A stretch of DNA of 64,000 bases. Origin: Thermoanaerobaculia bacterium. GTDB taxonomy: Bacteria > Acidobacteriota > Thermoanaerobaculia > Gp7-AA8. Below are positions 1,670 through 61,609 of the stretch, one piece after another. The notes under the pieces were generated by a model. The model saw only the letters and a program-made list of their open reading frames with translations. It was not told the origin of the DNA and ran no database searches. The stretch covers positions 5,249 through 69,248 of the forward strand of contig DASQJY010000044.1 in assembly GCA_035630815.1 (NCBI GenBank), read 5' to 3'. Position 1 is the first letter of the stretch. Each line of letters begins with the position of its first letter. A program made the translations under genes and the position numbers.

Positions 1670-3124
1670 TCAAAAGATTTGCTTGCGGTCCGTCGACGAG
1701 GGGATGTTCAGCTCGTCGCGGTACTTCGCCACGGTGCGCCGTGCGATGTTGATGCCTTCATCGTTGAGGATCTTCATGATCTTCGAATCGCTGAGAGGCT
1801 TGCGCGGGTCCTCGTTCTCGATGTAGCTCTGGATCTTCTTCTTCACGGTCAGCGACGAGATGTCCTCGCCGGTATCGGAATCGATTCCGCTGTGGAAGAA
1901 GTACTTCATCAGGAACAGGCCGCGCGGCGTGTGCATGTACTTGTTGGACACGACGCGCGAGACCGTGGATTCATGCATCTGGATGTCGTCCGCGACGTCG
2001 CGCAGGACGAGCGGCCGGAGGAAGTCGATCCCCTTCTCGAGGAACTCGCGCTGGTGCTTGACGATCGATTCGGCCACCTTGTAGATCGTGCGCTGGCGCT
2101 GGTCGAGTGACTTGATGAGCCACACCGCGGAGCGGATCTTGTCCTTGATGTAATTGACCGTTTCGCCGTCGGACTTCGAGTCCATCGAGTTGAGCATCGA
2201 GCGGTAGCCGCTGTTGATGCGCAGCTTGGGCATGCCGTCCTCGTTGAGGACGATCACGTATTCGTCGCTGACCTTGTGCACGTAGACGTCGGGCTCTACG
2301 TAGATCGCTCGCTCATTGGAGTATTTCCTCCCCGGCTTGGGATCGAGATGCTTGATCAGCTCGACGATGCCCTCGAGCGTCTTCATGTCGATGCCCAGGG
2401 ACTTCGCCAGCGGGACGAACTTCCGCTGCATGAACTCTTCCCAGTGATCGCGGATGATCACTTCCACGAGGGGCGTGTCGATCTCCAGGAAGCGCAACTG
2501 GAGCAGGAGGCACTCGCGGAGGTCGCGCGCGCCGACGCCGATCGGGTCGAGCGACTGCACGGCCTTGATCGCGGTCTCCACTTCCTCCGGCGTGTAGCCG
2601 CCGGACGCGGCCACCTCGTCGTCGGTGGCGCGGAGGTAGCCGTCCTCGTCGATGTTGCCGATGATGAACTGCGCGATCTCTTTCGTCCGCGGCGAGGCGT
2701 CGGACATCGAGAGCTGCCAGCTCAGGTGATCGGAGAGGTTGGGGGGGCGGGTGAGCGTGTTCTCGATGGGGAACTCTTCGTGCTCCTCCCCCATCCCGCG
2801 CGGGTTGTAGCCGTACTCGATGTAGTCCTGGAAGTACGCGTCGTAGTCGATCTCGTCGAAGGAGTCCTTCTCCTTCTCCTCCTTCGTCTCCTGCTTCTTC
2901 GCGTCCTCGGCTTCGTTCTCCGCTTTCGCTTCCTCGGCCTGGGTCTCCTCGGTCTTCACTTCTTCAGCGGATTCGTCGAGGAGCGGGTTCTCGAGCAGTT
3001 CCTGGTTCAGCACTTCCTGCAGCTCGAGCTTCGACAGTTGCAGCAGCTTGATCGCCTGCTGCAACGACGGCGTCATGATCAGCTTTTGGCTGAGTTTGAG
3101 GTGAAGCTTCTGTTCAAGTGCCAA
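1670..3124 (-). CDS. rpoN: RNA polymerase sigma-54 factor
   Basis: N-terminal MALEQKL.LKLSQKLIMTPSLQQAIKLLQLS region, acidic linker, and C-terminal RpoN box ARRTVAKYR. Confidence 0.95.
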   Translation of the reverse strand: MALEQKLHLKLSQKLIMTPSLQQAIKLLQLSKLELQEVLNQELLENPLLDESAEEVKTEETQAEEAKAENEAEDAKKQETKEEKEKDSFDEIDYDAYFQDYIEYGYNPRGMGEEHEEFPIENTLTRPPNLSDHLSWQLSMSDASPRTKEIAQFIIGNIDEDGYLRATDDEVAASGGYTPEEVETAIKAVQSLDPIGVGARDLRECLLLQLRFLEIDTPLVEVIIRDHWEEFMQRKFVPLAKSLGIDMKTLEGIVELIKHLDPKPGRKYSNERAIYVEPDVYVHKVSDEYVIVLNEDGMPKLRINSGYRSMLNSMDSKSDGETVNYIKDKIRSAVWLIKSLDQRQRTIYKVAESIVKHQREFLEKGIDFLRPLVLRDVADDIQMHESTVSRVVSNKYMHTPRGLFLMKYFFHSGIDSDTGEDISSLTVKKKIQSYIENEDPRKPLSDSKIMKILNDEGINIARRTVAKYRDELNIPSSTDRKQIF

Positions 3125-3143: not shown

Positions 3144-3896
3144 TCAGTTTAGATTGAATGTCTCGCCGAGATAAATGCGCCGGACTTCCGCGTCGGCAGA
3201 AAGGCTCTCCGGCACGCCCTGCCGGAAGATTTCGCCTTCTTTGATGATGTAGGCCCGATCGGTGATCTTCAGCGTTTCCCGCACGTTGTGATCCGTAATG
3301 AGGATCCCGATCCCCCGGGCCCGCAGTTGCGAAACGATGCGTTGAATCTCGAAGACTGCGATTGGATCGATTCCTGCAAACGGCTCATCTAGCAAAATGA
3401 ATGCCGGATTGATCGCGAGGCTCCTGGCGATCTCCACGCGCCGCCTCTCCCCCCCTGACAGCATGTAAGCGCGGCTCCGCGCGATGTGCGTGATGCCGAA
3501 CTCCTCGAGCAGCGCACGCGTCCGGCGCTCGCGCTCCGCGAGCGGCAGGCGCATGGTCTCGAAGACGGAGAGGAGGTTCTCCTCGACCGTCAGTTTCCGG
3601 AACACGGACGCTTCCTGCGGCAGGTAGCTGATCCCGCGCTGCGCCCGCAGATACATCGGCAGCTCGGTGATGTCGTCGTCGCCGAGGGAGACCGTCCCGT
3701 CATCCGGCTTCACCAGCCCCACGATCATGTAGAAGGTGGTGGTCTTCCCCGCCCCGTTCGGCCCGAGCAGCCCGACGATCTCCCCCTGCCGGATGTCCAC
3801 CGAGACGTCGCGCACGACCTTGCGCCCCTTGTAAACCTTCACCAGGTGGGTTGCCGTGAGCCGCAGCGGCTCGGGTTTGACGGAGGCATCAGCCAT
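3144..3896 (-). CDS. lptB: LPS export ABC transporter ATP-binding protein
   Basis: Walker [13 protein letters not shown] signature [15 protein letters not shown], Walker [10 protein letters not shown]. Sits between rpoN and an OstA-domain gene. Confidence 0.93.
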
Positions 3897-3948
3897 GCGC
3901 GGCGGAGATTATCAGACGAGAGGCTCCGGCGCGGGCGTACCGTGAACG

Positions 3949-4260
3949 GAATTGAAAATTGAAAATTGAAAATTGAAAAATCGGAGCTGCCCACTCATGC
4001 AGCGAACGGAACGATCTCCAACTCTGCCGCCTTGTCGGCACGCTCGAGGATCTGCTCCACGCGCGCCAACGTGACGTTGTCGAGCAGGTACTCGTTGCAT
4101 CGTTCGCACTGCAGAACAGGCAGCTTCTTGATGATGACGATGGTCGCCCCCGAGACCTTGAATGGCAGATCGGTCGTCGCTGCCATCAGCTTCCCGGCAC
4201 AAACGAGGCACTTCATGACCGCCCTCCGATTTTTCAATTTTCAATTTTCAATTTTCAATT
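3949..4260. repeat. GAAAATT-heptamer inverted repeat pair enclosing a 222-nt ORF (MITE-like, filled copy)
   Basis: Left arm 3949-3986 is GAATTGAAAATTGAAAATTGAAAATTGAAAAATCGGAG. Right arm 4224-4260 is its reverse complement. AT-rich arms in a GC-rich context. An empty copy of the same arms lies at 28557-28646. Confidence 0.9.
3995..4216 (-). CDS. YgiT-type zinc-finger protein (MqsA N-terminal-like domain only)
   Basis: MKCLVCAGK...LQCERCNEYLL gives two CxxC pairs with the spacing of the YgiT-type zinc finger. SD GGAGG lies 6 nt upstream of ATG 4216 and is contributed by the repeat arm. The ORF-track start at 4237 lies inside the arm. Confidence 0.6.
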   Translation of the reverse strand: MKCLVCAGKLMAATTDLPFKVSGATIVIIKKLPVLQCERCNEYLLDNVTLARVEQILERADKAAELEIVPFAA

Positions 4261-4294
4261 TGGCTCCGAAGGCAACCGGCCCTCCATCCTCCGC

Positions 4295-6283
4295 CTAACC
4301 CTCGTGCTTGTACGTCCCCTGCGTCTTGCCGTCCGAGCTGAGGACCTGGACACGGTCCTTGGCGATGTCGAAGACGATCTGCTGGCCGGCTACGTTTCCT
4401 TTCGGGTCGGTGATCGTGGCGGGCTTGCCGAAGACGTAGATCATCTTTTTCTCGACGTGGTAGATCGCCTTGTCGCCCGTCCCTTTGCGGCCGGTGGACG
4501 TCTCCCCCATCGCCACGCCGTTCTCCGCTTCCATCCGCTCCACCTTGCGGTTCTCGTCGAGGAAGAGCGTCGCTTTCTCCGACTTCAGGTTGCGCGTTTC
4601 GTCGACGATCGAGACCTTGCCGAGGAGCTCGACGCGGCGCTCGTTCTTGCGGGCGATGAGCTGGTCGCTGTTCGCCTGCATCGGGGTCTTGCGCGCGACA
4701 TCGGTGGAGGTGTTGTAGAGCAGCGTGCGCACGTTGCCGCGCGCGGTGATGCTGTCGCCGGCGCCCTGCACCTGCAGCTCCTGCGAGAGGATGGTGTTGT
4801 TGTCCTGCCAGGCGCGGACGTTGCCGGTGAAATGGGCGACCTTCTGCGCCTGCCGCATGATCAGCTCATCGGCGTTGACGAAGACCGGCTTGCCCGAGGG
4901 GAAGAGATTCGTGCCGTCCGCCGAGGCGCCGGTGGTTTTCGCCTTCGACGCGAGCTGCGCGATCACGGAGCCGGTTGCGCGTGCGGTCTGCGCGCGCGGG
5001 GCGAACTCGATCTGCTTGGCCTTCAGCGTGTGGCCGTCGCTGACGACCGTCGCCTGCCAGCCGGGATCGGTGGTGAGCAGGATGCGGTCGCCAGTGATGT
5101 CGTAGGTCGCGCGGAATGCCGAGGCGGTGGTGCGCGGGTCCGTGTAGCGGAACGCGCCCTCGAGAGACGCGGTGCTCGCCTTGCGCGTGCCGGGGTCGAA
5201 CCAGACCTTCACGTGCTCCGCGGTGATCTGGCGCGTTTCGGGTCCGAGCTCTTTCATCACCACGGACCAGTCGGCCCTGATCTCGCTGACGGAGCGGTTC
5301 GCGAGCGCGATCCGGAAGTTGCGCGCCACAATGTCGCGCTGCGGCGGGCCGTCGAGGATGGCCCGGGCCATGTTCTCGGCGCTGATGGCGTTGATGGCGT
5401 TGATCTGGCCGTCCGGCCCGAGCTCGGTGTTGAAGAGGTCGCAGGTGATCTGTTTGCGTCCGCCGAGGTCCTCGCCGGGGGCGGTGTTGGCAGCGGTGAC
5501 GATGACCACGTTGCCGCGCCCTTCGAGCGCGACGATCTGCTTCCGGTCCGGCGTGAAGCGGCCGATCATGTAATCGGAGCGGAGGCTTTCCGGTCCGCGG
5601 TCCATCTTCACTGCTTTGGTGAACTCGACCACGTTCTCGGTGCGCCGGAAGAGGCTCTCCTCGCCGGCGATGGTCATCGGCTGTTCGGTCGGGTGCTGCG
5701 GTGCCATGGTGGCGGTGACGTTCTTGTGCAGCCGCAGCGTCTCGCCCGCGACGTCGAGGTCGAGCGCGCCGGCCTTGCCGTCCCACCGGTCGACCTTGAA
5801 CTCCACCGGGATGTCGTTCCTCAGCCGGCTGCCGTCGTAATGGATCTCGGCGGTCTTGATCTCGATGCCGTCGGTGGAGGTGACGCGCACGCCCCCCTTC
5901 GCCTCGGCTGCCTTCGTCTGGCTGTTGAATTGCGCCTGGGGGCAGGCGATCACGTAGGTCAGGCCATTCTGACGGTGAAGGGTGAGCGTGACCCCTTCCA
6001 GCGTGGTCCAGCCGGATTCGAAGGAGACCAGGCGAGTGGCCACGATCTCGGAGACGACGCGGCCGCCGATCGTCTGCACGTCGCGAAAGGCGCGCGACTC
6101 GAGCAGCGGGTCGTCGCCGGGCCGCTGTGTCGAGGTGACGGCTACGCCCGGCTGCCGCGGTGCGCGGCGCGAGGCGGTCCAGTTGGCGACGATCACTCCG
6201 ACGAAGGCGAGAAATGCGATCGGCAGCGCATAGCGAAGGACACGGATGGTGCGCTGCATGTTCGAGCGACGTAACATCTTCAC
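4295..6283 (-). CDS. LptC/LptA-like OstA-domain periplasmic LPS transport protein (fusion-like, N-terminal membrane anchor)
   Basis: Single N-terminal TM (ALPIAFLAFVGVIVANW). Repeated beta-jellyroll OstA-like segments (GNVRAWQDNNTILSQEL, LLGKVSIVDETRNLKSEKATLF). Position immediately upstream of lptB. Confidence 0.65.
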   Translation of the reverse strand: MKMLRRSNMQRTIRVLRYALPIAFLAFVGVIVANWTASRRAPRQPGVAVTSTQRPGDDPLLESRAFRDVQTIGGRVVSEIVATRLVSFESGWTTLEGVTLTLHRQNGLTYVIACPQAQFNSQTKAAEAKGGVRVTSTDGIEIKTAEIHYDGSRLRNDIPVEFKVDRWDGKAGALDLDVAGETLRLHKNVTATMAPQHPTEQPMTIAGEESLFRRTENVVEFTKAVKMDRGPESLRSDYMIGRFTPDRKQIVALEGRGNVVIVTAANTAPGEDLGGRKQITCDLFNTELGPDGQINAINAISAENMARAILDGPPQRDIVARNFRIALANRSVSEIRADWSVVMKELGPETRQITAEHVKVWFDPGTRKASTASLEGAFRYTDPRTTASAFRATYDITGDRILLTTDPGWQATVVSDGHTLKAKQIEFAPRAQTARATGSVIAQLASKAKTTGASADGTNLFPSGKPVFVNADELIMRQAQKVAHFTGNVRAWQDNNTILSQELQVQGAGDSITARGNVRTLLYNTSTDVARKTPMQANSDQLIARKNERRVELLGKVSIVDETRNLKSEKATLFLDENRKVERMEAENGVAMGETSTGRKGTGDKAIYHVEKKMIYVFGKPATITDPKGNVAGQQIVFDIAKDRVQVLSSDGKTQGTYKHEG

Positions 6284-6319: not shown

Positions 6320-6745
6320 ATGCGTGCTCATGTGATTCTCGGTACCGCGGTCCTGCTGCTCTTCGCGACCGGTGCCGCCCCCGCCGCCGACGACCCGCAG
6401 GTGACGGAACTGCTCGCCGCCATCAAGGGAAAGGAGAACCGTCCCGCCGGCGAGGTCTTCAAGAACGTGACGCTGCTGAAGGACGTGCCCGCCGCCCGTT
6501 TCCTCCGCATGATGGACGTCGGCTACAGCCAGTCCCTCGGCATCGGCTGCGATCACTGCCACGTCGAGGACCGCTGGGAAGCAGACGAGAAACGCCCCAA
6601 GCGCGCCGCCCGCGAGATGATCATCCTGGTCAAGGAGATCAACGCCCGCCTCGGCGAGATGCAGGAGATCGATACCTCGGACGCGGTGGTGAACTGCACC
6701 ACCTGCCACCGCGGCTATGTGAAGCCGGCCCTGCAGATGCGGTAA
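6320..6745 (+). CDS. secreted c-type cytochrome, reaction-centre cytochrome c subunit-like
   Basis: Signal peptide and two haem motifs, CDHCH and CTTCH. KNVTLLKDVPAARFLRMMD resembles the CytoC_RC family. Confidence 0.65.
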   Translation: MRAHVILGTAVLLLFATGAAPAADDPQVTELLAAIKGKENRPAGEVFKNVTLLKDVPAARFLRMMDVGYSQSLGIGCDHCHVEDRWEADEKRPKRAAREMIILVKEINARLGEMQEIDTSDAVVNCTTCHRGYVKPALQMR

Positions 6746-6772: not shown

Positions 6773-7270
6773 ATGGGAAAACCACGCTCACAAACAACGT
6801 TCAACGAGGGCGACGAGCTGTCGTGGAGCAAAGCGGGCCCGTATGCAACGAAACTCTCCGGCGGAGCTCGAACGGTAGTCGCTCACGGTGCCACTCCTGA
6901 GGAGTCGGAACGGCGAGCCGCACGGCTGTGGGAAACGCGGGAGAAGCAGATCGCGGAGGTCGCGCAACACGGGACCGACGAAGGGTTGCGAGTGGCGTTC
7001 GAGGAGCTCGCGCTGTCGTGGTCGTCGGCAACGGCACATCTATCATCCCCTGCGAAACTGGTCGAGCACCCTGCCTATCGGCAGATTATCGGGCTGGGCC
7101 CCGCGGTGCTGCCCCTGATGCTGCGCGATCTGGCGCAAACCCATCGCTTCTGGTTTCCCGCGCTCCATGCCATTACGGGCGAGAACCCGATCCCTGACGA
7201 TGCGGCGGGTGATGTCGAAAGGATGACAGAGGCGTGGATGGGCTGGGGCGCCACGAACCGCCTCATCTGA
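6773..7270 (+). CDS. hypothetical protein
   Basis: 165-aa ORF. Its stop overlaps the next start (TGATG). Confidence 0.45.
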   Translation: MGKPRSQTTFNEGDELSWSKAGPYATKLSGGARTVVAHGATPEESERRAARLWETREKQIAEVAQHGTDEGLRVAFEELALSWSSATAHLSSPAKLVEHPAYRQIIGLGPAVLPLMLRDLAQTHRFWFPALHAITGENPIPDDAAGDVERMTEAWMGWGATNRLI

Positions 7271-7716
7271 TGCGCGAGTTGCTCGAACAATTGTTCCCGC
7301 GCCTCCGGAACACTACTTTCGAAATCACGAGTCCCCGAGACGGCCGGTACAACTGCATCGCCTGGGCTGCTGGTGAAACCCATCGCTGGTGGTGGCCGGG
7401 CGAGGCACTATTCTCATTCTGGCCTGCCGGTGTGGAGCGCCAAGAATCTCTGGCCAGTTTCGTTGCTGCATTCGCCACGCTTGGTTACGAACCGTCCGCG
7501 TCAGGTGACCACGATCCGGACTACGAGAAGGTTGCGATCTTTACCTCGAGTGACGGCGTGCCCACCCATATGGTGCGGCAACTACCGAACGGCTCATGGA
7601 CGAGTAAGCTCGGTGGGCTGGAAGACATCGCGCATGTGAAGGTGAGCGGAGTTGCCGGCGCGGAGTATGGCCACGTAGTTGCGGTTCTTCAGCGCCGGCG
7701 GGCTTCGCACCCCTAG
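7270..7716 (+). CDS. hypothetical protein with candidate Cys/His pair
   Basis: Start MRELLEQ is coupled to the upstream stop. Carries RYNCIAWAAG and VPTHMV motifs. No family assigned with certainty. Confidence 0.45.
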   Translation: MRELLEQLFPRLRNTTFEITSPRDGRYNCIAWAAGETHRWWWPGEALFSFWPAGVERQESLASFVAAFATLGYEPSASGDHDPDYEKVAIFTSSDGVPTHMVRQLPNGSWTSKLGGLEDIAHVKVSGVAGAEYGHVVAVLQRRRASHP

Positions 7717-7925
7717 CGCGCAAAGACCTCGTCGGCCGGGATGACCTCGATGTTGCCGGCCTTGTACTCCGCGTACCGCCTCTCGGCTTCTTCGGCCCAG
7801 AGCTGGTCGTTCTCCTCGTCGGAGAGGTTATCGAGGCTATCGAGAAGCTGACTCGCCAGTTCGGCGCGCGACGTCAAGGGCAGATCGAGCGCTTCGGCGA
7901 CGATGTCTTTTACATCTCTGCTCAT
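7713..7925 (-). CDS. putative addiction-module antitoxin component (orphan)
   Basis: 70 aa. The pattern LPLTSRAELASQLLDSL...W..E..RR..EYKAG...IPADEVF is typical of the small addiction-module component family. No toxin partner is adjacent. Confidence 0.65.
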   Translation of the reverse strand: MSRDVKDIVAEALDLPLTSRAELASQLLDSLDNLSDEENDQLWAEEAERRYAEYKAGNIEVIPADEVFAR

Positions 7926-7954: not shown

Positions 7955-9604
7955 TCACCGCACGTCAACCACGTTCAATCTCACCCCGCAATACCGGTCC
8001 GGCTCGACGTGCACGAGGAGGTCGACGGTGCGGGTGAGCATCGAGGCGAGCTGCTTCACTCCGGGCCAGAGGACGCCGGTGGCGCGGCCGGTGGCGTCTT
8101 CGAGCGAGAGCTCGCAGCAGTCCTCGGCGAAGGTGCGGGTGGCGGTGACCGTGACTGCTCGCACCACGAAGAGCGGCTGGGTGTTGCCGGCGCCGAAGGG
8201 CTGCAGCAGTTCGTGCGCTTTCATGAACTCTTCGTCGATGTCGGCGAGCGTCAGCTCGGCGTCGACGCGGGCTTCGCGGCGGAACAGCACCTCGTCGAGG
8301 GCGTCGAAGCGTTCGTGCAGGCGGCGCTGCAGTTCGGCGACGTTCGTACGAGGAAGGGAGAAGCCGCAGGCGAACTCGTGGCCGCCGAAGTGGGTGAAGA
8401 GATCGGAGACCGCTTCCAACTCGCTGTGCAGGTCGATGGTCGGGATGCTGCGGCCCGAGCCGACGCAGAGGTCGCCTTCGATGGTCATCACCAGCGCGGG
8501 GCGGTGGTAGCGCTGGGCGAGGCGTCCGGCGGTGAGGCCGACCACGCCGCGATGCCACCCCTCGCCTGCCAGGACCAGCACGCGCTCGCCGCCGCGGATC
8601 TGCGTCTCGGCAGACTCGCGGACCTGGATCTCGACCTGCTGCCGCTCCGCGTTCATCCGGTCGAGCTCCGCGCAGATCTCCCACGCCGACTCCTCGTCGG
8701 CCGCAGCGAAGAGATCGATGGCCGTGTTGGCCGAGGCGAGGCGTCCGGCCGCGTTGATGCGGGGACCGATCTTGAAGCCGACATCTACAGCTCGTAGAGG
8801 ACGCCCGGCCAGCCCCAGCCGCTTCAGGAGCGCACGCAGGCCGGGATTGCGCACGTCGGCCAGACCGGCCAATCCGAGGGAGGTAATGGTGCGGTTCTCG
8901 CCGATGAGAGGCGCGACGTCGGCCACGGTGCCGATGGCGGCGATCTTCAACAGAGAGTCCACTGACATCTTCTTTCCGCTTCGGCGAATGAGCTCGCAGC
9001 ACAGCTTGAACGCGACGCCGACGCCCGCCAGCTCCTTGAACGGATACTCGCAGCCCGGCTGTTTCGGGTTCAGCACCGCGGCCGCCTCGGGGAGCGTGCC
9101 CGGCGGCAGGTGATGGTCGGTGATGATGACGTCGATCCCGCGCTCGATGGCATGGCGCACCGGCTCGATGCTGGTGATGCCGCAATCGACCGTGATGACG
9201 AGCTTCACGTTCCGCTCCGTCAATACCCGCTCGAGCACCTCCATCTTCAGGCCGTAGCCGTCGACCAGACGGTGCGGGACGACGAAGCCGGCGTCGGCGC
9301 CGAGGGAGCGCAGCACCGTCTGCAGCATCACGATGGAGGTCACGCCGTCGACGTCGTAATCACCGTAGATCACGATCCCCTCTTTGTCCCGCACGGCGCG
9401 CGCGATCCGCTCGCAGGCGTGTGTCATCCCGTGGATGGTGGCCGGGTCGTGCAGGTCGCCGATGGCCGGCGCCACGAAGCGCCGGAACGACTCCTCATCC
9501 GACACGCCGCGGCGGATGAGCAGCGAGCGCAACGTCGCGTTCGCAACCGGGATGCGCGGATTGTCCGGAGGTGCTGGAGTGATGGTCCAGGAGTCGTGAA
9601 TCAC
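7955..9604 (-). CDS. recJ: single-stranded-DNA-specific exonuclease RecJ
   Basis: DHH motifs (YGDYDVDGVTS, ITDHH) and the DHHA1 region GGHEFACG. Confidence 0.93.
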   Translation of the reverse strand: MIHDSWTITPAPPDNPRIPVANATLRSLLIRRGVSDEESFRRFVAPAIGDLHDPATIHGMTHACERIARAVRDKEGIVIYGDYDVDGVTSIVMLQTVLRSLGADAGFVVPHRLVDGYGLKMEVLERVLTERNVKLVITVDCGITSIEPVRHAIERGIDVIITDHHLPPGTLPEAAAVLNPKQPGCEYPFKELAGVGVAFKLCCELIRRSGKKMSVDSLLKIAAIGTVADVAPLIGENRTITSLGLAGLADVRNPGLRALLKRLGLAGRPLRAVDVGFKIGPRINAAGRLASANTAIDLFAAADEESAWEICAELDRMNAERQQVEIQVRESAETQIRGGERVLVLAGEGWHRGVVGLTAGRLAQRYHRPALVMTIEGDLCVGSGRSIPTIDLHSELEAVSDLFTHFGGHEFACGFSLPRTNVAELQRRLHERFDALDEVLFRREARVDAELTLADIDEEFMKAHELLQPFGAGNTQPLFVVRAVTVTATRTFAEDCCELSLEDATGRATGVLWPGVKQLASMLTRTVDLLVHVEPDRYCGVRLNVVDVR

Positions 9605-14959: not shown

Positions 14960-15206
14960 CGTGAAGGTCACTCAGGAAATCGTGAGTGCCGGGCACGGAT
15001 GTCGTGAAGGTCGCTCAGGACGTCGTGAGCGCCGACACGGACATCGTGAGCGCCGGCACGGACGTCGTGAGCGCCGCCACAGACATCGTGAGCGCCGCCA
15101 CGGATGTCGTGAGCGCTGCAACGGACATCGTGAGCGCTGCAACGGACATCGTGAGCGCCGCCACGGACATCGTGAGCGCCACCACGGACATCGTGAGCGC
15201 CGACAT
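14960..15206. repeat. 21-nt tandem repeat array, about 11.7 copies
   Basis: Unit CGTGAGCGCCGCCACGGACAT repeats head to tail with point variants. Units 1 and 3 are the CGTGAAGGTC.CTCAGGA variant, and unit 2 has one extra G. Confidence 0.95.
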
Positions 15207-15212
15207 TGGTTT

Positions 15213-15344
15213 CTCTACCGGACGAACAGAAGCAGTCAGAGCGGTAGCTGCCGCCACCGCACTCCATATGAATTCGGCGCGGGATTGATATGGAGTGCGG
15301 TAACGCTAGTTACCGCTCTGACTGCCTCTGTTCGTCCGGTAGAG
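15213..15344. repeat. long imperfect inverted repeat, GGAGTGCGGTAAC family (inner-facing cores)
   Basis: Arms are CTCTACCGGACGAACAGAAGCAGTCAGAGCGGTAGCTGCCGCCACCGCACTCCATAT and ATATGGAGTGCGGTAACGCTAGTTACCGCTCTGACTGCCTCTGTTCGTCCGGTAGAG. The right arm supplies the last 12 codons and the stop of the GT4 gene. Confidence 0.9.
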
Positions 15345-16298
15345 AAGGGCACGCTGCTCGTACAGGTCGACGGTCTCTCTCGCGACCCGGTCCCAGTCCC
15401 ACTGCATAACGCGGGCGTAGTTGTGCGCGCCCATCGCTGCGACATCCTGCGCGCTCGTGGCGCGCTGCATGGCGTCGAGCAGCGCATCCCCTTCGTAAAG
15501 AAAGGCGCCACCCTCGTCGAGCATCCCGCCGATGCAGCCGCGGCGGACCGCGATGCACGGCTTCGCGAACGACATGGCCAGGATCGCGGCGCCCGAGGTG
15601 AAGCCGTGCCGATACGGGAGCACGACCGCGTCGCAGGCGTTCATGTAGAGCTGCACGCGCTCGTCGGGGACCGCGCCGGGCGCGAAGGTGATGCGCGTGT
15701 TGCCACTCGTGCGGCGTTGGAGCTCGTGCAGGAGCGAGAAATCCGGAACGCTGCCGGCCAGCACGAGATGCGCGTTGCCGCCGAGGCGTTCGAAGGCATC
15801 CAGGAGCTGCTCGACGCCCTTGTACCTGCGGATCCAGCCGAAGAGGAGGAACACGAACGCCCCGTCCGGAACGCCGAGGGTCCGCCGCGCATCGTCTCGC
15901 GTGACGCGGTTCTCGTAATGATCGGTGTAGCGGCCGTGCGGGATGGTGATCGCCTTCTTCGCGAACCGCCCGAGCTCGCGCCGCCCTTCATCGCAGTGGA
16001 GGATCAGCGCGTGAGCGAGACGCAGCGTGACGGCGGTGATGAGCGCGTCCCGCAGTGGGCGCGGGTTGTCGTGGCGCCGCAGGTCGTGCACGGTCCAGAC
16101 GATCCTCACGCGGGTGAGACGCGCACGCACGAGCATCCCGAGGTAGCGCAGGACCGAAGACGCGGCGGTATGGACGTTGTGCAGATGCAGCACGTCGGGG
16201 CGGCTGTCGACGAGCTCGATGCCCGCACGCCGGAGCGCGCCGGCGAGCAGGGTCTCGTAGGGATTGAACTTCCAGCGCGAGACGAACCGCACGCGCAT
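15306..16298 (-). CDS. glycosyltransferase family 4 (GT-B)
   Basis: MRVRFVSRWKFNPYE start overlaps the priA stop (ATGA). The C-terminal half has the GT1/GT4 layout (FLLFGWIRRYKGV...VLPYRHGFTSGAAILAMSFAKPCI). Confidence 0.8.
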   Translation of the reverse strand: MRVRFVSRWKFNPYETLLAGALRRAGIELVDSRPDVLHLHNVHTAASSVLRYLGMLVRARLTRVRIVWTVHDLRRHDNPRPLRDALITAVTLRLAHALILHCDEGRRELGRFAKKAITIPHGRYTDHYENRVTRDDARRTLGVPDGAFVFLLFGWIRRYKGVEQLLDAFERLGGNAHLVLAGSVPDFSLLHELQRRTSGNTRITFAPGAVPDERVQLYMNACDAVVLPYRHGFTSGAAILAMSFAKPCIAVRRGCIGGMLDEGGAFLYEGDALLDAMQRATSAQDVAAMGAHNYARVMQWDWDRVARETVDLYEQRALLYRTNRGSQSGN

Positions 16299-22053: not shown

Positions 22054-22148
22054 GGTGTCAGGTATCGGGTGTCAGGTGTCTGTGGCTTTGCGGCTGACGA
22101 GACATGCGCCGTGAGCCGGAAAGCCCCAGACACCAGACACCTGACACC
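22054..22148. repeat. heptamer-array hairpin element, GGTGTCA family
   Basis: Left arm GGTGTCA GGTATCG GGTGTCA GGTGTCT. An extended imperfect inner stem follows. Right arm is GCCCCAGACACCAGACACCTGACACC. It fills the whole rpoZ-coaBC gap, beginning 2 nt from the coaBC ATG. Confidence 0.9.
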
Positions 22149-22151
22149 AGC

Positions 22152-27669: not shown

Positions 27670-28037
27670 CGCTTCCTCCCCATCGAGATGTCGTAGCAGT
27701 CGAGCACCAGCAGCAGGTTCATGAGCCCCGCGCTGAGCGTGAACATCCGGCCGTACTCGAACGTGGCCGCGTTGATGCTGCCGGACGTGCCGAGGCCGCG
27801 AGCGATGAAGTAGAGCGTCCCGGAGCCCATCGAGCCGATGGTCGCCAGCAGCGAGAGCATCGAGCCCTTCGCCTCGGGGAGCGTGTAGAGCGCGCCGTCG
27901 ACGCCGAGGCCGAGGACGAAGAGCAGCACGATGATGGCGCAGAACGCCGCGGCGAGCGCGCGGCGCCCGAGGTAGAAGTGGCCCGCGCCCGGGACGAGCA
28001 GCGCGAGGGCCATCGAAGCGAGAGCGCGCGACTTCAT
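27666..28037 (-). CDS. small multi-TM membrane protein, hypothetical
   Basis: From MKSRALASMALALLVPGAGHFYLGRR. ATGA overlap with the HIT gene stop. The longer ORF-track version is out-of-frame overlap noise. Confidence 0.55.
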   Translation of the reverse strand: MKSRALASMALALLVPGAGHFYLGRRALAAAFCAIIVLLFVLGLGVDGALYTLPEAKGSMLSLLATIGSMGSGTLYFIARGLGTSGSINAATFEYGRMFTLSAGLMNLLLVLDCYDISMGRKR

Positions 28038-28546
28038 TCCGAGAAACGCGCTCCGTTCAGCTGCTCGAAGTGCGGCAGCAGCTTGCCGTACGTGACGTCG
28101 AGCTCCTCCGGCACCAGGCGCGTGCGCGCCGTGACGCTCATGAAGTTCGAGTCGCCGCTCCACCGCGGCACGATGTGCAGGTGGTAGTGATCGGCCACGC
28201 CCGCACCGGCCACCGTGCCGAAGTTCATCCCCACGTTGAAGCCGTCCGGGCCGTACACGTCCGACAGCACGCGCTGCGCTTCGGCGGTGACGCGGATGAG
28301 CGCCTTGAGCGACACGTCCGTCGAGTCGTACAGTCGCGCCTCGTGCGCCACCGGCGCCACCATGAGGTGGCCGTTCGTGTAGGGATACTTGTTCAGCATG
28401 ACCAGGGCATCGCGCGTGCGGAACAGCGTGAGCGCCGAGCGCGGATCGTCCGTCGTCGCCGCGACACAGAAGATGCAGCCGGCCGGCGCATCGGGTTTTG
28501 GGGCCGTCAAGTAGGGGTATCTCCAGGGAGTGAAGAGAGTTTCCAT
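28034..28546 (-). CDS. HIT-family nucleotide hydrolase/transferase
   Basis: Histidine triad HYHLHIVPR. Confidence 0.88.
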   Translation of the reverse strand: METLFTPWRYPYLTAPKPDAPAGCIFCVAATTDDPRSALTLFRTRDALVMLNKYPYTNGHLMVAPVAHEARLYDSTDVSLKALIRVTAEAQRVLSDVYGPDGFNVGMNFGTVAGAGVADHYHLHIVPRWSGDSNFMSVTARTRLVPEELDVTYGKLLPHFEQLNGARFSE

Positions 28547-28556
28547 GCGGGTGAGT

Positions 28557-28646
28557 CGAAATTGAAAATTGAAAATTGAAAATTGAAAGATCGGAAGCGC
28601 ATCGCCTGGTTCGATTTTTCAATTTTCAATTTTCAATTTTCAATTG
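28557..28646. repeat. GAAAATT-heptamer hairpin element (empty copy)
   Basis: CGAAATTGAAAATTGAAAATTGAAAATTGAAAGATCGGA, then a loop of about 15 nt, then TCGATTTTTCAATTTTCAATTTTCAATTTTCAATTG. The arms match those at 3949-4260. Confidence 0.92.
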
Positions 28647-28656
28647 CTGCCGTGTC

Positions 28657-29094
28657 TTACTCCCCGGCCGCCGCGGGCTCCGGCGCCGTCTCCGCGGCAC
28701 CTTCCGCCGCCGGCATCTCCGCCAGCGCCTTGTTGATCAGCTCCTTCAGCTCTTTGCCCGGCTTGAAGTACGGGATCTTCTTGGACGGCACTTCCACCTT
28801 CTCACCCGTCTTCGGGTTGCGGCCGGTGCGCGACTTGCGGCTGCGCAGGCGGAAGCTGCCGAAGCCGCGGAGCTCGATCTTCTGGCCGGCGCGGAGCGAC
28901 TCCACGATCGAGTCGAAGACGATGTTGACGATCGTCTCGGCCTGTTTCTTGGTGAGCTGGACCACCTTTGCGACCTCGTCCACCAGCTCGGCCTTGGTCA
29001 TCACGCCGGAGTTCAGCTCGATGGTGTTCTCGTCGTCCTCGTGCTCGTCGTGATCGAGCTCGAAATCATCGTTCTCGTGTTCGTCCAAGGCCAT
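28657..29094 (-). CDS. HU/IHF-family DNA-binding protein with acidic N-terminal and Ala/Pro/Glu-rich C-terminal extensions
   Basis: Core MTKAELVDEVA...IELRGFGSF.LRSRKSRTGRNPKTGEKVEVP is canonical IHF/HU. An alternative start at ATG 29004 would remove the acidic MALDEHENDDFELDHDEHEDDE extension. Confidence 0.85.
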   Translation of the reverse strand: MALDEHENDDFELDHDEHEDDENTIELNSGVMTKAELVDEVAKVVQLTKKQAETIVNIVFDSIVESLRAGQKIELRGFGSFRLRSRKSRTGRNPKTGEKVEVPSKKIPYFKPGKELKELINKALAEMPAAEGAAETAPEPAAAGE

Positions 29095-29108
29095 CCTCCT
29101 GGTCGTCG

Positions 29109-30059
29109 CTACTTGTACAGAAACTGCGGCAGCCGGCGGCTCGCGACGCGCTGCAGCAGCGCATCCGCGTCGCCGCCCGTCAAGAGCTCGAGCAGGCGAT
29201 CCTCGCGGCGCTTCGGCCACAGCTTCGTCGGCTCGCCCTTGATGCCGGCGAGCTTCCCCGCCGTCCGGACCGCGTCATCGATACTTCCGAGCTCGTCGAC
29301 GAGCTTCAGTTCCAGCGCCTGCTCGCCTGTGAAGATCCGTCCGTCGGCGATGCGGGCCACGTCGGCGTGTTTCATCTTCGTGCGGCGTCCGTGTGCGACG
29401 TCCCTCACGAATTGAGAGTGCAGCTGCGTCACGATTCCCTGGAAATACTGCCGCTCCGCATCCGTCAATTCACGGAACGGCGAGCCGGCGTCCTTGAGCG
29501 CGCCGCTGGTGATCGTCTCCGGCTTCATCTTCGCCCACTGCACCAGCTCCTTCATCTCGAACCACTGCAGGATCACGCCGATGGAGCCGGTGATCGAGCC
29601 GGGATTCGAGACGATCTGGTCGCAGGCGGCGGCGATGTAGAAGCCGCCCGAGGCCGCGACGCTGTCGAGCGAGGCCACGATCGGCTTGCCCGAATCGGCG
29701 CGGGTCCGGCGGATCGCGGAGTAGATCTCCTGCGAAGGCGCGATCGCTCCGCCGGGGCTGTTGATGCGGATCACGATCGCCTTGACCGAGGAGTTGTCGG
29801 CGTACTTTTTCAGGAGGTCGAGCGTTTCGCGCGCCTCCATGATCTCCCCTTCGATCGGGATGACCGCGACCTTGTCGCCGCCGAGGCTCAGCTCCGTCGA
29901 CTCGCCCGCGAACGACGCCGCCATGAGCGCCAGGATGAAGAAGCCGATGAACAGCACGGCGCACCCGGTCAGCGCGCCGAGGAAAAACGAGCCCGCGCGT
30001 GATTTACGCGCAGGCGGCGGCGGTGGCGGAACGATCTGCGGGGACTCGAGCTCGGACAT
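29109..30059 (-). CDS. sppA: signal peptide peptidase SppA, 36K type
   Basis: N-terminal TM, INSPGG, and SGGFYIAAACD...GSITGSIGV blocks. Confidence 0.9.
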   Translation of the reverse strand: MSELESPQIVPPPPPPARKSRAGSFFLGALTGCAVLFIGFFILALMAASFAGESTELSLGGDKVAVIPIEGEIMEARETLDLLKKYADNSSVKAIVIRINSPGGAIAPSQEIYSAIRRTRADSGKPIVASLDSVAASGGFYIAAACDQIVSNPGSITGSIGVILQWFEMKELVQWAKMKPETITSGALKDAGSPFRELTDAERQYFQGIVTQLHSQFVRDVAHGRRTKMKHADVARIADGRIFTGEQALELKLVDELGSIDDAVRTAGKLAGIKGEPTKLWPKRREDRLLELLTGGDADALLQRVASRRLPQFLYK

Positions 30060-32672: not shown

Positions 32673-32688
32673 GGTGTCGCTCCCGTGC

Positions 32689-32842
32689 CAGCAGTTTGGA
32701 GTGCGGTGACCGCAGTCACCGCTTTGACTTGCCGCGGAGCGGCAGCGCGCGTTGATCCGCACTCGTGCAGCTCCGAGGCACGCTCGCCGGCTCCGCCGGC
32801 AGTGAAAGCGGTGACTGCGGTCACCGCACTCCAAACTGCTGG
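32689..32842. repeat. long inverted repeat, GGAGTGCGGT family
   Basis: Arms are CCAGCAGTTTGGAGTGCGGTGACCGCAGTCACCGCTTTGACTTGCCG and CGGCAGTGAAAGCGGTGACTGCGGTCACCGCACTCCAAACTGCTGG, about 60 nt apart. Each arm holds its own small palindrome (GGTGAC..GTCACC). Confidence 0.9.
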
Positions 32843-32855
32843 CGCAGGGACCACG

Positions 32856-39851: not shown

Positions 39852-39975
39852 GATTTTCACCTTCAGTCTCACCTTCAGGACAGTTGAACTCGTCGATTTT
39901 CATCTTGAGTCTCACCGGGAGGACAGTTGAACCCCATGATTTTCATCTTGAGTCTCGCCTGGAGGACAGTTGAAC
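39847..39975. repeat. 43-nt tandem repeat, 3 copies
   Basis: GATTTTCA(C/T)CTT(C/G)AGTCTC.CC....GGACAGTTGAAC (38 nt) at 39852, 39895 and 39938, separated by 5-nt variable linkers. A degenerate fourth copy overlaps the recG 3' end near 40016-40040. Confidence 0.9.
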
Positions 39976-43030: not shown

Positions 43031-43992
43031 GATGTGACCGCTGCTTCCGTGACGGTGAACGCCCGATCCCGGGTATCGAGACGCACTGTCCTGCCGACCG
43101 GCATCAGGAGATTGTTTCCGTGATGCCCGATGGGGAGGTTGCGTACGACTGGGATCTGCAGCGGCTCGAAGAATTCGCGCAGAAACGCGAGCAATTCCGC
43201 GTCGTCGCCGCAATCCTTCAATGTGCCGATGAGTACACCCCGGACCGCCTGCATTCTGCCAGACAGGCGTAGGTGGGTCAACATACGGTCGAGACGGTAA
43301 AGCGGCTCGTCGACGTCTTCCCAGAACCAGATGCCGCCGTCGACCCAATAGTCGTACGCCGTGCCGACCAGCGACTGCGTCAGGGCCAGGCAGCCGCCGA
43401 AGAGCGGCCCTTCCGCTTCCCCTTCCACGACCACGTCGCCGGCCGCGAATTCGCGCGTGAGCGGCGCCCCGCCGCTGAGCATGTCCCAGAACCACCGTTC
43501 GATGTCCGGACTGAGCCCGCCGCGGAAGTCGAGGTTGATCATCGGGCCGTGAAAGCTGGCCACGCCGACCTGGGTCGCGAGCGCCTGGTGGATGGCGGTG
43601 ATGTCGCTGAACCCGACCAGCGGCCGCGGATTCGCGGCAAAGGCGGCGTAGTCGATCCGGTCGAGGATGCGCATGGCGCCGTAGCCGCCGCGGGCGAAGA
43701 AAAAGGCGTCGTACTCCGGCGAGCGGAAGGCGCGATTGAGCTCCTCGACCCGCTCGTCGTCGGTCCCGGCCAGGTAGCCGCGGTGGCGGCGGTCGACGTT
43801 CGCGGCGATGGTGACGCGATGCCCGAGCCGCTCGATGGCCCGCGCGCCTTCGACGATGCGCGCCCGCTCCGAGGGGCCGGAGGAGGCGAGGATGGCGATG
43901 TGGGCGTGTTGTGGGATTGCTCGCGGCGCGATGAGGCGGGGGGACGGGATTGAGGATTGAGGATTGAGGATTGAGGAGGAAGAAGAATGCAC
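43027..43992 (-). CDS. ldcA: LD-carboxypeptidase (peptidase S66)
   Basis: IAILASSGPS, GGYGAMRIL and nucleophile block VGFSDITAIH. The start is uncertain. The only in-frame canonical start not overlapping rnpB is GTG 43992, inside the hairpin loop. Confidence 0.75.
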   Translation of the reverse strand: MHSSSSSILNPQSSIPSPRLIAPRAIPQHAHIAILASSGPSERARIVEGARAIERLGHRVTIAANVDRRHRGYLAGTDDERVEELNRAFRSPEYDAFFFARGGYGAMRILDRIDYAAFAANPRPLVGFSDITAIHQALATQVGVASFHGPMINLDFRGGLSPDIERWFWDMLSGGAPLTREFAAGDVVVEGEAEGPLFGGCLALTQSLVGTAYDYWVDGGIWFWEDVDEPLYRLDRMLTHLRLSGRMQAVRGVLIGTLKDCGDDAELLAFLREFFEPLQIPVVRNLPIGHHGNNLLMPVGRTVRLDTRDRAFTVTEAAVTS

Positions 43993-44046
43993 GGGGACAT
44001 TCTCCGATGCTTTCTCCTCAATCCTCAATCCTTCATCCTCAATCCC
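43946..44046. repeat. heptamer-array hairpin element, TGAGGAT family
   Basis: Arms are GGGATTGAGGATTGAGGATTGAGGATTGAGGAGGA and TCTCCTCAATCCTCAATCCTTCATCCTCAATCCC, with a 32-nt loop. Starts 10 nt past the rnpB 3' end. Confidence 0.92.
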
Positions 44047-44056
44047 GAAGGAAGAA

Positions 44057-44473
<417 letters not shown>

Positions 44474-46898: not shown

Positions 46899-46973
46899 TG
46901 CTGCCCCGCCCCTTCTTCCGCTTACTGTCCGTTATGGACGGCGCGGATTATCGCATCTGCGGCGAGCTTCATT

Positions 46974-47133
46974 GTTGTCGGTTGTCAGTTGTCGGTTGTC
47001 TGCGCCTTTATGGCGTTGGGCCTTAGGCGTTGGGCCTTTGGGGTGTTTCGGCTTCGGGAGCACACCCCAAACGTTTAAAGCCAAACGCCTAAAGCCCTAC
47101 TCCACAGACAACCGACAACTGACAACCGACAAC
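46974..47133. repeat. nested two-tier heptamer hairpin element
   Basis: Outer perfect arms are GTTGTCG GTTGTCA GTTGTCG GTTGTCT (46974-47001) and AGACAAC CGACAAC TGACAAC CGACAAC (47106-47133). Inner imperfect arms are built from GGCGTTG GGCCTTA units around the loop TTCGGCTTCGGGAG. Confidence 0.92.
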
Positions 47134-47137
47134 ACCG

Positions 47138-61445: not shown

Positions 61446-61609
61446 TATGGAGTGCGGTAACGCCAGTTACCGCTTTGACTGCTTCTGTTCGTGCAGTAAT
61501 CCGAGGCTGGTGCAATCTCGCCTCTTGGCACAAGCGAAGGCTGGACCTGCTTGCGTTGCCGGACGGACAGAAGCAGTCAAAGCGGTAACTGGCGTTACCG
61601 CACTCCATA
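61446..61609. repeat. long inverted repeat, GGAGTGCGGTAAC family (outer-facing cores)
   Basis: Arms are TATGGAGTGCGGTAACGCCAGTTACCGCTTTGACTGCTTCTGTTCGT and ACGGACAGAAGCAGTCAAAGCGGTAACTGGCGTTACCGCACTCCATA. Both strands therefore give the same spurious peptide MECGNASYRFDCFC in the ORF track. Confidence 0.92.

Follow-up and report, generated by a model that had tools for sequence, protein, structure and literature searches.

Heptanucleotide repeats (STRR) are known from Cyanobacteria as tandem 7-mers in intergenic sequence. In Beggiatoaceae and Bacteroidetes, TAACTGA-type heptanucleotide repeats form direct arrays, with one inverted case among 170 sets (PMC4679880). In Coxiella, the intervening sequence (IVS) of the 23S rRNA has a 28-bp terminal stem around an S23p open reading frame (ORF), carries tandem heptamers (GACAGAT) before the ATG and is cleaved by RNase III within the stem (PMC4990558). 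In this paper, we describe a locus in a 64,000-nt stretch of DNA, hereafter the window, from a Thermoanaerobaculia metagenome-assembled genome (MAG; contig DASQJY010000044.1), in which two perfectly complementary arms of tandem GAAAATT heptamers enclose a small ORF for a YgiT-type zinc finger (ZnF) in the spacer between the genes for an LptC-LptA fusion (lptCA) and lptB. We put the probability at roughly 0.55 that the present arrangement is a composite of a toxin-antitoxin cassette remnant and a heptamer palindrome resembling repetitive extragenic palindromic (REP) elements, and not one transposon; the cassette, or its antitoxin half, would have entered the loop of a hairpin and the toxin would have been lost.

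In how the feature would work, the 23S rRNA IVS of Coxiella and Leptospira appears to be the closest known analogue. The two share a long terminal stem around a small ORF (28 bp there, 37 bp here), a Shine-Dalgarno (SD) region at the border of stem and loop, and tandem heptamers beside the start codon; the IVS stem is an RNase III substrate and the stem in the window is long enough to be one. Unlike the IVS, the element described here lies in an mRNA spacer and not in helix 25 or 45 of a 23S rRNA gene, in a window with no rRNA match, and its passenger is a YgiT finger and not a 23S_rRNA_IVP protein (PF05635). The parts of the locus, and the second GAAAATT hairpin of the window, are as follows.

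3950-3986, minus strand: downstream arm, CUCCGAUUUUUCAAUUUUCAAUUUUCAAUUUUCAAUU in mRNA sense, complementary to 4224-4260
3987-3994, minus strand: 8-nt linker GUGGGCAG from the ZnF stop to the arm, as read from the sequence
3995-4216, minus strand: YgiT-type ZnF ORF of 73 codons, with no toxin gene alongside
4223-4227, minus strand: GGAGG, SD-like bases 6 nt upstream of the ZnF ATG, four of the five forming the inner arm end
4224-4260, minus strand: upstream arm, AAUUGAAAAUUGAAAAUUGAAAAUUGAAAAAUCGGAG in mRNA sense, 4.3 tandem GAAAATT units plus the inner motif ATCGGAG
4261-4294, minus strand: 34-nt spacer from the lptCA stop to the upstream arm, containing GGCCGGTTGCC
28560-28645: empty GAAAATT hairpin (copy B), arms 28560-28593 and 28612-28645, 34 nt and 97% complementary, loop of 18 nt

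An inverted-repeat search of the window returned the arms at 3950-3986 and 4224-4260 as 37 nt each, 100% complementary and 237 nt apart, and Tandem Repeats Finder assigned both of them a period of 7 with 4.3-4.4 copies and 100% matches. The 21-mer GAAAATTGAAAATTGAAAATT, which is (GAAAATT)3, has 12 matches in the window at up to three mismatches, all of them within the four arms at 3950-4260 and 28560-28645, and none of 100 shuffles contained any match. The original prediction, drawn from the letters of the window, had described arms of about 37 nt in a filled and an empty copy, and both copies are confirmed (37 nt at 100% and 34 nt at 97%). It had given the empty copy a loop of about 15 nt; the copy is real and its loop is 18 nt long. 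The genes on either side of copy B, which fills the spacer between them, code for an HU-family protein (28657-29220) and a HIT-domain protein (28034-28546). The predicted position of the ORF also stands, the stop codon (TCA, 3995-3997) lying 8 nt from one arm (3987-3994) and the ATG (4216-4214) 7 nt from the other (4217-4223), as does the claim that its SD is the inner end of the arm, since four of the GGAGG bases are arm bases that pairing of the arms is predicted to engage.

The inner motif ATCGGA(G/A) is likewise present in empty hairpins, at 28589-28595 in the window and at the metagenome loci L107, L036 and L092, so that the SD bases come from the hairpin family and not from the ZnF gene. 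The linker at 3987-3994 probably derives from the original hairpin loop, and GGCAGCTCCGAT(T/C)TTTC, a short match, also closes the loops of empty hairpins in L107 and at the lptCA-lptB junction of a relative, L007. Read together with the start of the arm, the linker (GGGCAG followed by CTCCGAT) matches the loop ends of the same two hairpins. These two small clues in the sequence, the shared inner motif and the linker match, favour the split of a hairpin that was already there.

The protein encoded between the arms scores 39.3 bits against TIGR03831 (YgiT_finger; cut-off 20.2). Both CxxC motifs (C3/C6 and C37/C40) are kept and are invariant in the alignment, and none of the 22 columns invariant across 13 homologues has changed. 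Scores against the MqsA family are lower than the family thresholds (PF15731, 23 bits where 30 is needed; TIGR03830, 24.8 bits where 61.8 is needed); the match to the MqsA profile is confined to positions 1-62 (the first 59 of Pfam MqsA_antitoxin), the alignment to the N-terminal domain of MqsA (PDB 3hi2/3ga8) is weak, and the protein stops at residue 73, lacking the helix-turn-helix domain of full MqsA. The exact protein is recorded once (P0001), on a 178-kb contig of a Thermoanaerobaculia MAG where its annotation reads MqsA-family antitoxin. Its homologues number over 120, most of them 73 aa long, and extend down to about 50% identity; every pairwise comparison that yielded a ratio of nonsynonymous to synonymous substitution (dN/dS) gave 0.10-0.31, dS being saturated in two pairs. 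The GC content at third codon positions (GC3), 0.80, is like that of host genes. Neutral decay of the ORF is ruled out by a dN/dS of about 0.2 together with the conservation of all invariant residues, and the earlier identification of a genuine, conserved YgiT zinc finger is upheld. As a gene it is ordinary.

Eight of the nine ZnF homologues whose genomic context was compared follow a DUF4258 gene directly, and in almost every case the ZnF start overlaps the DUF4258 stop by 4 nt. The pair of DUF4258 and ZnF genes occurs at seven or more distinct loci (at least L002, L003-6, L015, L016/17, L018, L143/144 and L145), usually beginning 10-20 nt past the stop of a co-directional gene, and the preceding genes vary (MerR, an unannotated 830-aa ORF, DUF4139, 4HBT, BioY and lptCA). 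Identity of the window ZnF to ZnF genes with an overlapping DUF4258 partner, among them those at the lptCA-lptB junction in two relatives, L015 and L016, is 62-74%; to an orphan ZnF without arms in L001 it is 73%. From these contexts, the ZnF family supplies the predicted antitoxin of a DUF4258/YgiT toxin-antitoxin cassette that is small and promiscuous, and the window ORF a putative orphan antitoxin gene that is intact and under selection.

The window ORF thus resembles the ZnF genes of such pairs in its match to TIGR03831, in its two CxxC motifs and in having relatives with an overlapping toxin, even at the same junction; it differs from them in standing between hairpin arms and in having no toxin alongside or elsewhere in the window. 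A tblastn search with the L016 toxin against the window gave nothing significant (best E = 0.08). Where a type II DUF4258/YgiT module would have its adjacent toxin, only 7 nt separate the arm from the ATG; these 7 nt and a frame ending at an overlapping TGA were considered as a toxin remnant and rejected, being unlike the C-termini of the L015 and L016 toxins when compared by eye.

The genes on either side of the element, and a short conserved box that abuts one of them, are listed next; lptCA, the ZnF ORF and lptB are all on the minus strand.

4295-6283, minus strand: LptC-LptA fusion gene (lptCA), 662 aa, PF06835 and PF03968, TIGR04409 and TIGR03002; upstream neighbour
3897-3916, minus strand: conserved box TCTGATAATCTCCGCCGCGC, abutting the lptB ATG, without an SD
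3144-3896, minus strand: lptB, TIGR04406 at 367.9 bits; downstream neighbour
1670-3124: rpoN, downstream of lptB, named from the Pfam annotation of the orthologues in L015/L016
1083-1673: hpf, downstream of rpoN, named in the same way

The LptC-LptA fusion, of about 655-665 aa, has more than 500 homologues at E ≤ 1e-100; the 120 listed (P0121-P0240) are of about 650-680 aa, and those with a named source are from Thermoanaerobaculia or Acidobacteriota. Fifteen related junctions between lptCA and lptB were recovered, with relatedness measured as the identity of LptCA to that of the window.

L015, 97.4%: DUF4258 and ZnF genes between lptCA and lptB, no heptamer arrays
L139, 95%: two or three unrelated genes, beginning 17 nt past the lptCA stop
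L016/L017, 94.6%: DUF4258 and ZnF genes between lptCA and lptB, no heptamer arrays
L140, 92%: GGCCGGT-type heptamers, then the end of the contig
L146, 85%: bare spacer of 48 nt
L141/L142, 84%: bare spacer of 47 nt
L007, 83%: empty GAAAATT hairpin
L013, 81%: GAAAATT hairpin with a nested palindrome of ~160 nt in the loop, 3' arm duplicated
L008, 73%: hairpin with unit GAATGCA (5022-5106)
L009, 71%: hairpin with unit GTTGTCA
L012, 67%: hairpin with unit GTGCTGA (4995-5061)
L011, 67%: hairpin with unit GGGCGCA and a nested palindrome (4988-5125)
L010, 67%: non-heptamer palindrome (about 4985-5050)
L014, 63%: hairpin with unit GGGCAGA (about 5000-5067)

The spacers of the relatives range from about 47 to 415 nt and nearly always hold a hairpin or extra genes. 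Eight relatives (L007-L014, L140) have a heptamer palindrome at the junction, with at least six different units among them, and the junction array is the sole heptamer array found in the 5-8-kb locus of each. In L140, the GGCCGGT-type heptamers downstream of lptCA are resembled, and only resembled, by GGCCGGTTGCC in the 34-nt spacer of the window. The junction is hypervariable, a recurrent landing and turnover site for cassettes and hairpins, at which the position of the hairpin recurs while its sequence turns over completely.

Ten of 12 junctions have the box TCTGATAATCTCCGCCGCGC almost intact, even where LptCA identity has dropped to 63%, and all of the sequence upstream of it varies; the box was seen at the same position in L007-L009, L013-L016, L141 and L146. 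It contains GATAAT, 11 nt ahead of the lptB ATG, and its CUCC is anti-SD-like. The box may be a -10 element with a leaderless or near-leaderless start for a unit of lptB, rpoN and hpf, and its conservation before the ATG points to lptB as the start of its own transcription unit. The description of this place as a normally tight operon junction therefore does not hold, given the length and content of the spacers in relatives and a box suggestive of a separate unit.

Aligned to L015, the window has 93-94% identical nucleotides along lptCA and again from the ATG of the ZnF gene on, and per 60-nt segment the flanking genes lptCA and lptB remain at 87-100% (L015) and 78-100% (L016) right up to the junction. 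The ZnF gene falls to 68-85% per 60-nt segment and 77% overall against the two relatives, with dS of 0.83 (L015) and 0.73 (L016), dN of 0.17-0.18 and dN/dS of 0.20-0.25, where lptCA has dS of 0.21 and 0.31 and lptB 0.15 and 0.25. The dS of the ZnF gene is thus about four times that of its flanks, which rules out vertical orthology with the ZnF genes of L015 and L016, and the gene is therefore not a vertically inherited copy that merely lost its toxin. By dS it is nonetheless closest to these two, the values against ZnF genes at other loci being 1.3-2.2. The comparison identifies the window ZnF, much older than its flanks, as a divergent allele of the cassette at this site, which would have arrived by replacement or by recombination confined to the spacer.

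The hairpin at this junction belongs to a larger family. The 64-kb window holds at least eight members, all in intergenic positions; between them they have five or more different units, and their arms of about 30 bp consist of about four tandem 7-mers.

953-1022: hairpin, unit GGTGTCx
3950-4260: hairpin, unit GAAAATT, ZnF ORF in the loop
20801-20873: hairpin, unit TGGTTGx (TGGTTGC)
22054-22150: hairpin, unit GGTGTCA
28560-28645: hairpin, unit GAAAATT, empty
43945-44047: hairpin, unit GGATTGA
46973-47134: hairpin, unit GTTGTCG, with a nested hairpin with 14-mer arms (47009-47099) in the loop
50677-50762: hairpin, unit GGTGTCA

Seven of the eight begin 0-34 nt past the 3' end of a gene. Convergent genes surround two of the hairpins, divergent starts one, and tandem genes of unrelated function, such as HU and HIT or uvrC and DUF4388-SPOR, four. 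The GGATTGA hairpin is found 9 nt downstream of the RNase P RNA gene (RF00010, 253 bits; 44057-44469, minus strand), a placement consistent with a role of such hairpins as terminators or at 3' ends. Predicted RNA stabilities in the window range from -44 to -106 kcal/mol, and the hairpins look like REP-like 3'-end structures that might serve as terminators, stabilisers or processing sites. No Rfam family matches the heptamer hairpins of the window. From the junctions and the window together, REP-like heptamer palindromes of many different units appear to be abundant in the intergenic spacers of Thermoanaerobaculia.

These palindromes share with REP elements, bacterial interspersed mosaic elements (BIME), REP doublets forming hairpins (REPIN) and repeats like miniature inverted-repeat transposable elements (MITE) their short, multi-copy and intergenic nature, a position near the 3' ends of genes, nested insertions and presence/absence variation. 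They differ from REP and REPIN sequences in that the arms are about four tandem heptamers whose unit varies, that no conserved GTAG/CGTC-type tag is present, that no REP-associated tyrosine transposase (RAYT) or other transposase has been linked to them, and that one copy encloses a gene. The heptanucleotide repeats of Cyanobacteria, Beggiatoaceae and Bacteroidetes are alike in comprising 2-6 intergenic tandem 7-mers near start or stop codons, with several units per genome and a scattered distribution, whereas they are described as direct arrays and an inverted pair that gives a hairpin of about 30 bp is typical here. A literature search on repeat strings or inverted heptamer hairpins in Acidobacteriota returned nothing relevant, a weak absence given that it left subscription journals mostly uncovered, and the family of seven-base-repeat hairpins looks undescribed.

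A metagenome scan for the GAAAATT arm pattern returned at least 120 loci in organisms of 32-68% GC, many of them unrelated and AT-rich; the 120 listed hold 307 heptamer arrays and 25 short-loop inverted pairs. High-GC hairpins with four-unit arms (L036, L071, L092, L107, L122 and L125) lie at loci unrelated to lptCA or copy B, and all six are empty, so that no second ZnF-filled copy was found among the high-GC hairpins inspected, in a search that was not exhaustive. The arms have a polarity: GAAAATT precedes AATTTTC in 14 short-loop hairpins of the metagenome loci and follows it in two, and in nine of ten distinct units from the window and the relatives the 5' arm is built of the heptamer in which G outnumbers C. 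The loops are not always empty. A nested palindrome of the type GTCATCC(C/T)GAGC...GAAGGACC lies in the loops of L013 (1210-1573) and L011, and in L013 the 3' arm and the insert are duplicated. Three unrelated metagenome contigs have ORFs of 121-124 aa for 23S_rRNA_IVP proteins (PF05635, 51-99 bits) between inverted GAAAATT-type arrays, namely L055 (1379-1864), L083 (246-701) and L091 (48-525). Proteins of this family are four-helix bundles. The layout of L083 is strikingly like that of the window, with (GAAAATT)5, GAAGGAG, 9 nt and the ATG, and at the other end a TAA overlapping (AATTATC)4. To judge from such contents, insertions seem to favour the loops of heptamer hairpins.

Separate from the heptamer hairpins is a palindrome family of the form GGAGTGCGG(T/C)AACGC...GCCGCACTCC, seen in the window at 61446-61609 with 54-nt arms. 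Palindromes of the GGAGTGCGG type are also the ones at the lptCA-lptB junction of L010 (~4985-5050) and behind the DUF4258-ZnF pair of L018 (~2790-2860).

In the predicted folds of the 351-nt spacer RNA, the arms are paired in both the minimum-free-energy and the centroid structure (-162.3 kcal/mol, z = -8.8); the arm duplex of 37 bp contributes -49.7 kcal/mol when taken alone, and copy B folds at -48.6 kcal/mol (z = -7.4). The guanines of the SD have a predicted probability of 0.00-0.45 of being unpaired in the full spacer RNA, with the AUG open. A built-in translational switch had been proposed for this arrangement. The SD is indeed predicted to be paired in the stem; it is also largely paired in the RNA without the 3' arm, so that the predicted switch is not clean at equilibrium, and sequestration of the SD as a clean switch was rejected on this ground. 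In a terminator scan, the sole consensus match was a 5-bp stem at 4003-3986 followed by UCCGAUUUUU, of a kind that shuffled sequences yield 3.1 times; the long arms, rich in A and U, come without a U tract of their own. A riboswitch or other known RNA was sought at 3800-4400 and discarded, Rfam giving no match even at E = 1. An integron attC site was likewise rejected: the ORF lies inside the hairpin, between perfect arms, and R-box (GTTRRRY) ends are missing.

From the anatomy, homology, synteny, selection and predicted folds of the locus, we infer the order of events, the RNA processing and the expression as follows. A cassette, or its antitoxin half, would have ended in the loop of a hairpin, as the nested palindromes did in L013, L011 and at 46973-47134 of the window, and the toxin would have been lost. 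The inner arm end ATCGGAG would then have been recruited as the ribosome-binding site of the ZnF gene. A perfect duplex of 37 bp is a plausible RNase III substrate. In transcripts reading through from lptCA, the arms would form such a duplex (~-50 kcal/mol), masking the SD and long enough for RNase III, and the ZnF cistron would resemble the ORF of a 23S rRNA intervening sequence in being poorly translated from within a loop and open to excision. The stem might at the same time be a 3'-end or processing structure of lptCA, as the other heptamer hairpins may be for the genes upstream of them, with lptB expressed from its own conserved box. The ZnF protein, if made, could neutralise DUF4258 toxins encoded elsewhere.

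Several observations weigh against this composite origin by loop capture. The arrangement of arms and ZnF is known from one metagenome assembly; none of the junctions examined holds an intermediate with arms, toxin and ZnF together, and nothing is left of a toxin gene in the 7 nt between arm and ATG. Arms are missing from L015 and L016, the two nearest relatives, and the spacer is bare in the two outgroups that come next (84-85%), so that the GAAAATT hairpin is not demonstrably ancestral at the junction; a ZnF gene already resident there could have acquired the arms. The window arms are perfect where those of L007 and L013 have decayed, which suggests recent formation or homogenisation. With regard to the proposed expression, an RNA that ends at the ZnF stop, without the 3' arm, still has its SD mostly paired (0.08-0.41 unpaired). 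Furthermore, each arm holds an inward-facing sigma-70-like match, TTGAAA-18-AAAAAT (two found, 0.3 expected), and a transcript from the one upstream of the gene would lack the 5' arm and the SD, starting about 5 nt before the AUG.

An origin in which the arms were built in place around a resident antitoxin, and have no function, is unlikely but accounts for several of these points. The toxin would have been replaced by an array or hairpin and the array copied, inverted, downstream of the gene, with the stem as a mutational by-product; the route could be template switching (fold-back or quasipalindrome correction) or two hairpin insertions followed by deletions. The cassette without arms in the nearest relatives fits this course, as does the spacer past the ZnF stop, which is weakly alignable between the window and L015 save for the inserted arm. 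Solitary arrays and inverted pairs are both common across taxa (307 arrays in the 120 loci listed), and perfect arms are what recent copying is expected to leave. Copying across 237 nt, or two insertions with two precise deletions, is however unparsimonious; the match of GGGCAG and CTCCGAT to the loop ends in L007 and L107 fits a pre-existing hairpin that was split, and the fourfold dS of the ZnF relative to its flanks argues against simple vertical descent from a state like that of L015. Capture of the gene by a hairpin, one of the two possibilities raised at first, draws some support from the GAAAATT hairpins at the same site in L007 and L013 and from the loop insertions seen elsewhere.

The other possibility, a hairpin carrying the gene as a mobile passenger, fares worse and is in our view distinctly improbable. 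The arms would be terminal inverted repeats that transposed with the ZnF gene as a unit, and the copy at 28560 a MITE-like empty form. Arms of the same sequence do occur at two loci of the window, GAAAATT hairpins with inner ATCGGA/TCCGAT are found on the unrelated high-GC contigs L036, L092 and L107, the junction shows presence/absence polymorphism, and small 23S_rRNA_IVP ORFs lie between inverted heptamer arrays elsewhere. The arms at 3950-3986 and 4224-4260 have, moreover, the form of the terminal inverted repeats of a transposon or MITE. Against this, any target-site duplication would be of 2-3 nt at most: the flanks of the filled copy (GGAGCC before the first arm, CCGTTC after the second) share at most CC and those of copy B (GAGTCG and GCTGCC) share nothing, and a 3-nt GGC at the ORF borders and the CC at the arm borders were rejected as duplications for being too short. 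No transposase was noted near either copy among the few neighbouring ORFs compared with Pfam, which was not a systematic scan. Hairpins of different units occupy the same spot in relatives, arms are absent from all of about ten other ZnF contexts, and the unit of arms and ZnF was seen once, with no second filled copy among the high-GC hairpins inspected from the at least 120 GAAAATT loci. Most directly, the homologous ZnF genes closest by dS are already at this junction in L015 and L016, with their toxin and without arms. The original prediction had named such relatives as the first half of what would refute it, and its mobile unit is not supported.

It is very doubtful that the 37-bp inverted repeats are a DNA-level device that inverts the 237-bp segment and flips the ZnF gene, with either arm supplying the SD. 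By the logic of the sequence, perfect inverted repeats around a promoterless ORF with an SD in both orientations would suit such a switch; no invertase or recombinase was noted among the neighbouring ORFs scanned, a single orientation is seen, in one assembly, and the empty copies with loops of 18-40 nt cannot work in this way. A chimeric join at a repeat during metagenome assembly, suggested by the presence of the exact protein and arrangement on one contig only, is scarcely credible for a feature that lies inside a 178-kb contig, with arms far below typical final assembly k-mers, both flanks collinear with relatives, and an intact ORF of host-like GC3.

Under the composite origin that we favour, the junction is a hot spot for small selfish cassettes, and the background of heptamer palindromes is more worth following than the antitoxin gene. 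With one junction carrying a hairpin of about 30 bp and a different 7-mer in each lineage, the relatives form a natural series on how a palindrome is created, how its complementarity is kept up and how it is replaced, and the series also bears on whether such hairpins end transcripts, stabilise RNA or are cut by RNase III, in a phylum whose molecular genetics is hardly developed. A further question is why small ORFs land in hairpin loops, as they do in rRNA intervening sequences; capture in the loop, if true, would tie the spread of toxin-antitoxin genes to REP-like repeats and IVS elements. More speculatively, and with long odds, the heptamer palindromes might be a distinct class of self-renewing intergenic element, with a variable unit kept complementary between polarity-biased arms, recurrent positions at gene ends, loops preferred for DNA capture (nested palindromes, an antitoxin gene here and 23S_rRNA_IVP genes in other phyla), IVS-like mini-cistrons excisable by RNase III and a dedicated generating mechanism. 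If so, both the heptamer periodicity and the polarity would follow from such a mechanism, which might be the templated addition of repeats or fold-back synthesis at a break.

The window has a second variable insertion site. An island of ~1.2 kb (6773-7925) lies between the convergent ends of a cytochrome c gene (6320-6745) and recJ (7955-9604), and contains a 165-aa ORF of unknown kind and two more ORFs, assigned to DUF7689 and to Unstab_antitox (PF09720); between the same two genes, L139 and L141 have a gap of only 8-33 nt. Other repeats of the window are at 14975-15202, 39852-39975, 15211-15346 and 32682-32848, and include a 21-nt tandem of 10.8 copies, a 43-nt tandem of 2.9 copies and two palindromes with 68-nt arms that are 85-87% complementary.

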